Part shown: positions 21,547 to 21,913 of the stretch, piece by piece
Numbering within the stretch: position 1 is the stretch's first letter
Layout of the letters: every line of letters starts with the position of its first letter
Assembly: GCA_050952625.1 (NCBI GenBank)
Contig: JBMNLH010000001.1
Location: 1,440,001 to 1,504,000 of the forward strand
DNA: 64,000 nt
Direction: 5' to 3'
Source: Bacillota bacterium
Lineage (GTDB): Bacteria; Bacillota; Ch66; Ch109
Program-made: the position numbers and the translations under genes
Notes under the pieces: generated by a model
Seen by the model: only the letters and a program-made list of their open reading frames with translations
Database searches by the model: none
What the model was told of the DNA's origin: nothing

Positions 21547-21572
21547 CGGGAAGCCGTTTGAATGGCTTCCCG
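21547..21572 (-). terminator. Intra-operon stem-loop between the 109-aa gene and the first rSAM gene
   Basis: CGGGAAGCC-N8-GGCTTCCCG with only a weak U-tract. Confidence 0.65.
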
Positions 21573-21583
21573 GCAGTGAATGA

Positions 21584-21913
21584 TTAAGTAGTAGGCTTGT
21601 CAAATTTCCGGTTAATTCTACTGTCAATTTTCTTGTCAACTTGCTTCAGGTTGTGGTTCATTAATTCTTGTTTCATAACTGCTTCTGCCTTGATTCTACC
21701 AAGTTGGTTAAGAATCTTCGAGGTAGTTGCAGAAATGTTGTCGGAAAGAGCGTTTACTTCATATGCATCTTGAACCTGTCCGGGATTTCTAAAATTGACT
21801 AGTTCAGCAATAGTCATTTCTTCAAAGGATTTCGTTAACCCGGGTATTCTAATTTTTTTGAGATCACTAACATCTTTGCTTAAAAAAAGATTCAACGATT
21901 CTTTAGACGGCAT
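21584..21913 (-). CDS. 109-aa hypothetical protein, candidate substrate/precursor of the three radical SAM enzymes
   Basis: SD AAGGGGGTG; first gene of the operon; no Cys and no double-Gly site; not recognised as a known family. Confidence 0.75.
   Translation of the reverse strand: MPSKESLNLFLSKDVSDLKKIRIPGLTKSFEEMTIAELVNFRNPGQVQDAYEVNALSDNISATTSKILNQLGRIKAEAVMKQELMNHNLKQVDKKIDSRINRKFDKPTT

Follow-up and report, generated by a model that had tools for sequence, protein, structure and literature searches.

The 109-residue protein encoded ahead of two radical SAM (rSAM) genes in the window (the whole stretch of 64,000 nucleotides analysed here) is probably the precursor of a new RiPP family. 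Its core would be epimerised by two EpeE-type rSAM enzymes, C-methylated by a B12-binding rSAM enzyme and released by a protease. The precursor family and its cassette are real and previously unnamed, and we read them as a new form of RiPP biosynthesis, for which D-amino acids and C-methylation are predicted. The gene belongs to a family with distinct conservation blocks, holds a fixed position before enzymes with recognizable family features, and is accompanied by a protease gene in other loci. The features of the window are summarized in Table 1.

Table 1. Features of the cassette and its surroundings in the window
Feature	Position	Strand	Basis or remark
Upstream DUF4855 gene	22079-24448	minus (co-oriented)	adjoins cassette only in this genus
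Shine-Dalgarno site of 109-aa gene	21920-21929	minus	GAAGGGGGTG, 6 nt 5' of ATG
Predicted RiPP precursor, 109 aa, unnamed family	21584-21913	minus	ORF call, homologue alignment and linkage
Conserved putative leader block, residues 17-44	21782-21865	minus	pattern DLxxVRIPGxxKPFEQLTISELxQLRPG
Predicted core, residues 49-65	21719-21769	minus	pattern D[TS][YW]xVxAV[TS]DNV[ST]VTTS
Variable helical putative follower, residues 66-109	21587-21718	minus	conservation and structure prediction
Stem-loop after stop codon	21547-21572	minus	9 bp, 7 G-C, weak U tail CATCTTTTAT
Second hairpin	21520-21537	minus	predicted to occlude SD of first rSAM gene
rSAM 1 (R1), 351 aa, EpeE/YydG-like T-SPASM	20457-21512	minus	C238 aligns with EpeE C223
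rSAM 2 (R2), 389 aa, EpeE/YydG-like	19262-20431	minus	paralog of R1 (identity about 31%); C246 at the position of EpeE C223
B12-binding rSAM C-methyltransferase, 639 aa	17300-19219	minus	TIGR03975, Cx7Cx2C, weakly PqqD/RRE-like C-terminus

Conservation blocks of the putative precursor family

A search with the single 109-residue sequence gave 3 hits among 5 candidates, and a four-row profile recovered 41 proteins from 729 candidates and, in a scan of 1.84 billion cluster representatives, 39. The alignment (A3) has 65 rows. It leaves out the near-self sequence P0001, six fragments (P0041, P0059, P0062, P0064, P0072 and P0074) and three long or repeat-containing, spurious-looking proteins (P0066, P0068 and P0073). 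Where sources name the members at all, the name is 'hypothetical'. The shared region fits no Pfam (65 members), NCBIfam (41 members) or PDB family, in agreement with the first-pass annotation, which had seen no known leader; nor do the homologues match a known regulator or chaperone; such a match would have spoken against a precursor. Longer or fused forms number 0 among 7,994 scored candidates of 320–2000 aa (weak evidence), and there is no plasmid match. The loci of the family lie in four phyla, namely Pseudomonadota, Acidobacteriota, Thermodesulfobacteriota and the spore-forming lineage of the window. No description of the family was found in the open literature, in which five family motifs occur in 0 papers; subscription journals and supplements lie outside this scope, and an entry in a genome-mining table is possible. 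The system is not described in the accessible portions of PMC10676384, PMC12350317, PMC10878394, PMC11002830, PMC10849128, PMC11048544 and PMC12710340. A class named 'origamins' appears in no relevant paper of the open literature.

By its alignment, the family is divided into a putative leader (residues 17–44), a putative core (residues 49–65) and a variable tail, predicted to be helical. Column entropy averages 2.40 bits over residues 1–16, 0.95 over 17–44, 2.42 over 45–48, 1.19 over 49–65, 2.49 over 66–90 and 2.80 over 91–109. The first-pass annotation had placed an internal core between a leader and a follower and quoted a low-charge segment, which covers residues 46–71 (three acidic and one basic). 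The family blocks bear out this layout, and the iterative homologue search and conservation profile that it had advised narrow the core to about residues 49–65. Lys and Arg make up 0.2% of residues 50–65 in the family and 15% of both flanks. The alternation in the core is strict: every member has hydrophobic residues at positions 51, 53, 60 and 62, and no member has one at 52, 54, 59 or 61. Position 51 is Tyr or Trp in 61 of the 65 members. Members differ freely in the length and sequence of their C-terminal part. One divergent member (L032:3224-3535, plus strand, genome G259) retains the leader beside a wholly different, aromatic-rich core that is still hydrophobic and alternating, which fits a modular leader and core layout. 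Separable recognition and core regions, a trait of RiPP precursors, are present as a sequence pattern in entropy, composition and L032. By eye alone, LTISELxxLRPG at the end of the leader resembles the double-Gly consensus. Kinship with double-Gly/NHLP leaders is unsupported by hhalign (0.4% to the NHLP precursor of the window) and by the family scans, with no TIGR03793 or TIGR03798 match among 41 members scanned, and we treat it as no more than a lead.

The AlphaFold2 model of the 109-residue protein shows a hairpin (51–56/59–64) and a long helix (65–102). The pTM is 0.30 and the pLDDT is below 50 over residues 44–62, so the core hairpin is a prediction only; over residues 71–100 the pLDDT is about 70–86. 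A fold search with this low-confidence model gave no match at E ≤ 0.001, and the ESM Atlas gave no usable match to the precursor. Proteusin cores are hypervariable. The core here is nearly as conserved as the leader, and this counts against reading the protein as a precursor. Strong conservation of both blocks, together with the confidently predicted helix, would suit a protein that receives its epimerisation and methylation in place and acts uncut, perhaps as a small protein, oligomeric or secreted, with D-residues in its hairpin; the proteases would then trim a signal or turn the protein over. We consider this unlikely, as the whole-protein model has a low pTM and no fold match, and the C-terminal part is free in both length and sequence.

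Gene order and expression signals

Locus scans yielded 8 loci from genomes, out of 40 pattern matches, and 15 from metagenomes, out of 276. Two of them, L015 and L018, end at the precursor gene and are excluded from the next-gene count. The next gene is an EpeE-like R1/R2 homologue in all 21 remaining loci fetched with downstream DNA. This is the reverse of homologues standing mostly without rSAM neighbours, which the first-pass annotation had named as an outcome against a precursor. Outside the window's own lineage, an EpeE-like gene lies next to the precursor in 16 of 16 lineages (precursors merged at ≥90% identity). Among 401 genomes of the window's phylum, the precursor and the close enzyme clade occur in the same four. 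Among 381 genomes of the phylum of G401, the precursor and close enzymes occur in the centre genome only, and distant enzymes without the precursor in six others. A small gene fixed beside its modifying enzymes, as these counts describe, is a further RiPP trait. In loci with enough sequence, the precursor is followed by R1, R2 and the methyltransferase; a third paralog (R3) is present in four loci, and in L032 just one EpeE-like gene precedes the methyltransferase. The cassette is also present in two further Bacillota genomes, where an EpeE-like gene again comes next after the precursor and one of the two has a single such gene, and Desulfolucanica intricata carries precursor WP_066633689.1. 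Complete cassettes are present in the isolates Cereibacter ovatus JA234 (L004) and Bradyrhizobium sp. HKCCYLS20291 (L008), and the cassette of L031 is complete as well.

Other genes accompany the cassette in particular loci. In L011, an unrelated ORF that ends in a VPEP motif and a hydrophobic tail (3321-4097, plus strand; PEP-CTERM-like by eye) separates R2 from the methyltransferase. In L019 (387-1472, minus strand), L020 and L021, a CsgG-family gene in divergent orientation lies upstream of the cassette, and only in the clade with twin-arginine-like precursors. No transporter recurs in at least three loci, and no N-methyltransferase recurs in the loci.

There is a very slight chance that the 109-residue protein is an accessory partner (a chaperone or stand-alone binder) and that the substrate lies elsewhere, for example in the NHLP precursor gene at 9877-10200. 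That gene, 7 kb downstream, is a genuine NHLP precursor (TIGR03793, 106 bits), and TIGR03975 enzymes commonly occur with NHLP-type leaders. However, NHLP homologues are absent from loci L004–L026, and the gene was rejected as the cassette substrate. A hidden smaller substrate ORF was not found either: among 158 small ORFs in 35 flanking regions, no other one recurs across lineages. The 109-residue protein has no confident globular fold, and its Lys/Arg-poor alternating segment has no obvious chaperone rationale. The NHLP gene itself, on the minus strand, encodes a 21-residue core and has no maturase gene beside it. Also on the minus strand of the window, at 7614-9569, a 651-residue protein has long PTQAP-type tandem repeats, a C-terminal ferritin-like domain and a weak encapsulin-cargo match.

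The precursor ORF begins with ATG and contains neither Cys nor Gly-Gly, and its SD site is strong, both as first annotated. The SD duplex is −16.0 kcal/mol, far beyond the −6.0 to −8.4 kcal/mol of four neighbouring genes, calculated against an anti-SD motif. An in-frame stop lies directly 5' of the ATG, so the ORF has no N-terminal extension. Relative to the same-genus genome G001 there are four synonymous and two non-synonymous codon changes, too few to weigh. The 3' end of the DUF4855 gene lies 165 bp upstream (gap 21914-22078), and no terminator-like site is found in this gap. The first position in the operon, claimed at the outset, therefore holds for the conserved cassette and is tentative for the transcript. 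The DUF4855 gene was rejected as a core member; being a neighbour of the cassette only in this genus, it probably lies outside it. Its product has 789 residues, with the DUF4855 domain at the C-terminus and an N-terminal half without family match.

The stem-loop begins 11 nt past the stop codon of the precursor gene. A GC-rich stem of 9–10 bp with a weak U-tract had been noted at this place, and the fold analysis agrees: the surrounding 101-nt region has z = −3.66, and 0 of 200 shuffles are as good. Terminator-like matches in 7.8 kb number 7 against 7.6 expected, so a match alone is not above chance. The second hairpin, absent from the first-pass annotation, pairs the SD of the rSAM 1 gene in the minimum-energy and centroid folds, and an outer stem around it also pairs the AUG. 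Together, the strong SD and both hairpins would hold the substrate in excess of the enzyme. As a family-wide feature the RNA hairpin was rejected. Just 4 of 18 homologous loci reach z ≤ −2, one of them a near-copy of the window locus; there is no hairpin in L031 and a strong one in L032.

The radical SAM enzymes

R1 and R2 score best against TIGR04078 (YydG/EpeE), with 56.5 and 63.6 bits, below the cut-off of 300. Their PDB sequence matches are to EpeE only, and the identity to EpeE is about 19–20%. Both carry a SPASM/twitch-type domain, and TIGR04517 (PoyD-type) lies outside the 25 best listed families for either. The model of R1 (pLDDT 89, pTM 0.88) matches EpeE chains with E of 1e-14 to 3e-13 and TM of 0.72–0.73, while the other listed enzymes reach at most 0.53. 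The ESM Atlas gave only generic radical SAM clusters for R1. Eight Cys residues are invariant in 27 aligned sequences, three in the radical SAM motif and C221, C237, C238, C306 and C309 (R1 numbering). The D210A mutant chain 8AI6 fixes a numbering offset of 25, which places C238 of R1 and C246 of R2 at C223 of EpeE. The available text of PMC13012085 and PMC8326336 gives this C223 as the proposed hydrogen donor that quenches the Cα radical. By sequence and fold match, R1 shares the T-SPASM arrangement of EpeE, with four auxiliary-cluster Cys and the donor Cys. Among eight distant relatives the Cys-Cys pair is present in five, Cys-Ile in two and a single Cys in one; the equivalent of C223 is thus not automatic in the wider group, two or three of the eight being without it. 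The position of EpeE D210 is an invariant Gly in this enzyme group. Together with the low identity and the low TIGR04078 scores, this suggests that the chemistry may differ from that of EpeE.

It is quite improbable, in our judgement, that the 109-residue protein is the substrate of a non-epimerase chemistry of R1 and R2, either C-C or ether crosslinks to Tyr/Trp51 or cyclopropanation of Val and Ile. Such reactions would be consistent with the low identity and the replaced D210, and with the aromatic residue found at position 51 in nearly all members; SPASM/twitch enzymes carry out many of them. But EpeE is the closest structure by far, and the invariant fifth C-terminal Cys, beside a cluster ligand, is in keeping with an enzyme that quenches the radical. 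Beyond the radical SAM motif R1 has only five invariant Cys, which would not suffice for two auxiliary clusters such as the available part of PMC10878394 describes in TigE.

In a tree of 34 rows, R3 is a starred group, R1 and R3 join at 92/87, and R2 has no firm placement; with this partial support, the paralogs seem to be old. Distances of precursors and enzymes correlate over 11 loci (r 0.69–0.84, 0 of 5000 permutations), but this is explained by shared descent and is no evidence of binding. Among the distant relatives, small proteins of 132–158 residues with a twin-arginine-like start lie directly before Cys-Cys EpeE-like enzymes (L042:2522-2920, minus; L044:856-1332, plus; L050:2607-3056, minus). 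Those of L042 and L044 are 32% identical and unrelated to the 109-residue family, and proteins of this type possibly form a wider class of epimerised, Tat-exported small proteins. ORFs of 84–101 residues without the twin-arginine motif lie upstream of Cys-Ile EpeE-like enzymes (L043:2663-2968, minus; L045:2301-2555, minus), and the chemistry of these enzymes is likely different.

The methyltransferase scores 558 bits against TIGR03975 (cut-off 282), and its B12-binding domain is above the Pfam cut-off. The Cx7Cx2C motif is present in 10 of 10 methyltransferases checked. The accessible part of a review (PMC5682303) gives it as the motif of PoyB/PoyC and the bottromycin C-beta methyltransferases. 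The PqqD match at the C-terminus is weak, occurring in 4 of 10 members with a best E of 0.002, and the protein of the window is not among them. A predicted complex of the B12 enzyme with the precursor scores 0.00, with no verdict either way. The comparison with EpeE and PoyB/C drawn at first reading stands on the enzyme side, in the EpeE fold and Cys layout and in the family and motif of the methyltransferase.

The chemistry that we infer for the precursor would run as follows. Recruitment of the enzymes would fall to the block of residues 17–44, perhaps by contact with the RRE-like C-terminal part of the methyltransferase. A Cα hydrogen would be abstracted by each EpeE-like enzyme, and the spare Cys (C238 in R1, C246 in R2) would return one from the other face. 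The epimerised sites are most likely Val, Ile or Ala at positions 53, 55/56, 60 and 62, and the two or three paralogs likely divide these sites among them. The methyltransferase likely β-methylates Val, Ile or Thr, as PoyB/C do. By analogy with the epipeptide and polytheonamide, the product is most likely a membrane-active amphipathic peptide.

Putative proteolysis and export, and relation to known systems

An aspartic protease gene lies 3' of the enzymes in 11 of 11 other loci with at least 1.9 kb after the last enzyme (8 lineages). The protein, of roughly 400 residues, contains Asp_protease_2 domains and a pair of D[TS]G-type sites and is double-domain and retropepsin-like; it likely removes leader and follower. 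This gene closes the cassette in every one of these complete loci, which argues against a protein modified in place and used whole. An S8 protease gene adjoins the cassette in five loci. In the window's genome (95.9% complete), the family protease profile and PF13650 give no match. The cassette there abuts a convergent spore-germination-type operon, and the lone C39 domain of the genome adjoins a different NHLP cluster. An unlinked protease would therefore act in this organism, or the product would remain uncut. In a separate RiPP region of the same genome (G000:C1:48000-62500), a protein with a C39 peptidase domain is encoded together with two NHLP-like precursors, additional double-Gly precursors and rSAM enzymes of SPASM type.

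Eight of the 65 members carry N-terminal extensions of 46–82 residues with a twin-arginine-like motif (RR/RG and a hydrophobic stretch). The TIGR01409 cut-off is passed by two of the eight and just missed by one. The 109-residue protein of the window has no twin-arginine signal. In L021, a single case, a precursor with a twin-arginine-like start goes together with a protease whose N-terminus looks signal-like by eye. Tat exports folded proteins. These extensions favour modification in place, as do the family protease not found in the window's genome and the distant EpeE-like enzymes that follow other proteins of 130–160 residues with twin-arginine-like starts. That alternative is strongest for the window's genome and the Tat-bearing members. 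For the family we prefer the cleaved precursor, and on this basis a fuller picture can be drawn tentatively, with more doubt than confidence. It would be a new RiPP class in which two or three EpeE-type epimerases share out an amphipathic β-hairpin core, set between a new leader and a helical follower, with PoyC-type β-methylation and excision by a single-chain retropepsin. Some lineages might use folded Tat export followed by maturation outside, and the class might be a branch of a wider, so far unrecognised EpeE-like group that introduces D-amino acids into Tat-exported small proteins.

The cassette resembles a hybrid of the epipeptide system (in epimerase type) and polytheonamide (in methyltransferase type). 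It belongs to neither class: an EpeX-like precursor and a sufficient TIGR04078 score are missing on the one side, an NHLP/Nif11 leader and an enzyme of PoyD type on the other. With the epipeptide system of Bacillus subtilis (epeXEPAB; EpeE/YydG, TIGR04078, PDB entries 8AI1–8AI6) it shares the EpeE T-SPASM fold and Cys layout including the C223 equivalent, a small substrate gene in first position, and Val and Ile as likely targets. The differences are several. One epimerase there contrasts with two or three paralogs here, far under the TIGR04078 cut-off and with Gly for D210, and a B12 C-methyltransferase is added. EpeX has 49 residues and a C-terminal core, whereas the precursors here have 100–180 residues and an internal, acidic core predicted to form a hairpin; no member matches a described family. 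An aspartic or S8 protease occurs here, with no recurring ABC transporter and hence no epePAB-type arrangement. The available text of PMC13012085 describes epipeptides as restricted to Bacillota, in contrast to the four phyla of the present loci.

The polytheonamide/aeronamide-type proteusins (PoyB, PoyC, PoyD) resemble the cassette in predicted epimerisation and B12-dependent C-beta methylation, in a V/I/T/N-rich core, in the TIGR03975 enzyme with Cx7Cx2C, and in the S8 protease of some loci. They have an NHLP or Nif11 leader with a double-Gly motif at its end, which is absent here. Their PoyD-type epimerase (one cluster and an RRE) contrasts with the EpeE type here, and the accessible part of PMC8326336 reports no significant homology between the two types. 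The core here is about 17 residues long and internal, with a predicted helix after it. The Asn spacing is NX5N in proteusins and NX4N here (two Asn), without a recurring N-methyltransferase. As far as described in the available parts of PMC5682303 and PMC5103208, the bottromycin precursor BtmD also has a core with a C-terminal follower and a β-methylating B12 rSAM enzyme of the same Cx7Cx2C class. No YcaO enzymes recur in the present loci, however, and the core has a leader as well as a follower.

EpeE-type epimerases have been described from Bacillota epipeptides, where one enzyme acts on two sites. In the present loci, two or three paralogs persist across four phyla, in company with an unnamed precursor family, a C-methyltransferase of polytheonamide type and a retropepsin-like protease. 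If the proposed reading is true, the family provides a leader not seen before and another route to peptides with D-amino acids and β-methyl groups. It would also be a clean natural system in which to see how paralogous epimerases share the sites of a single substrate.
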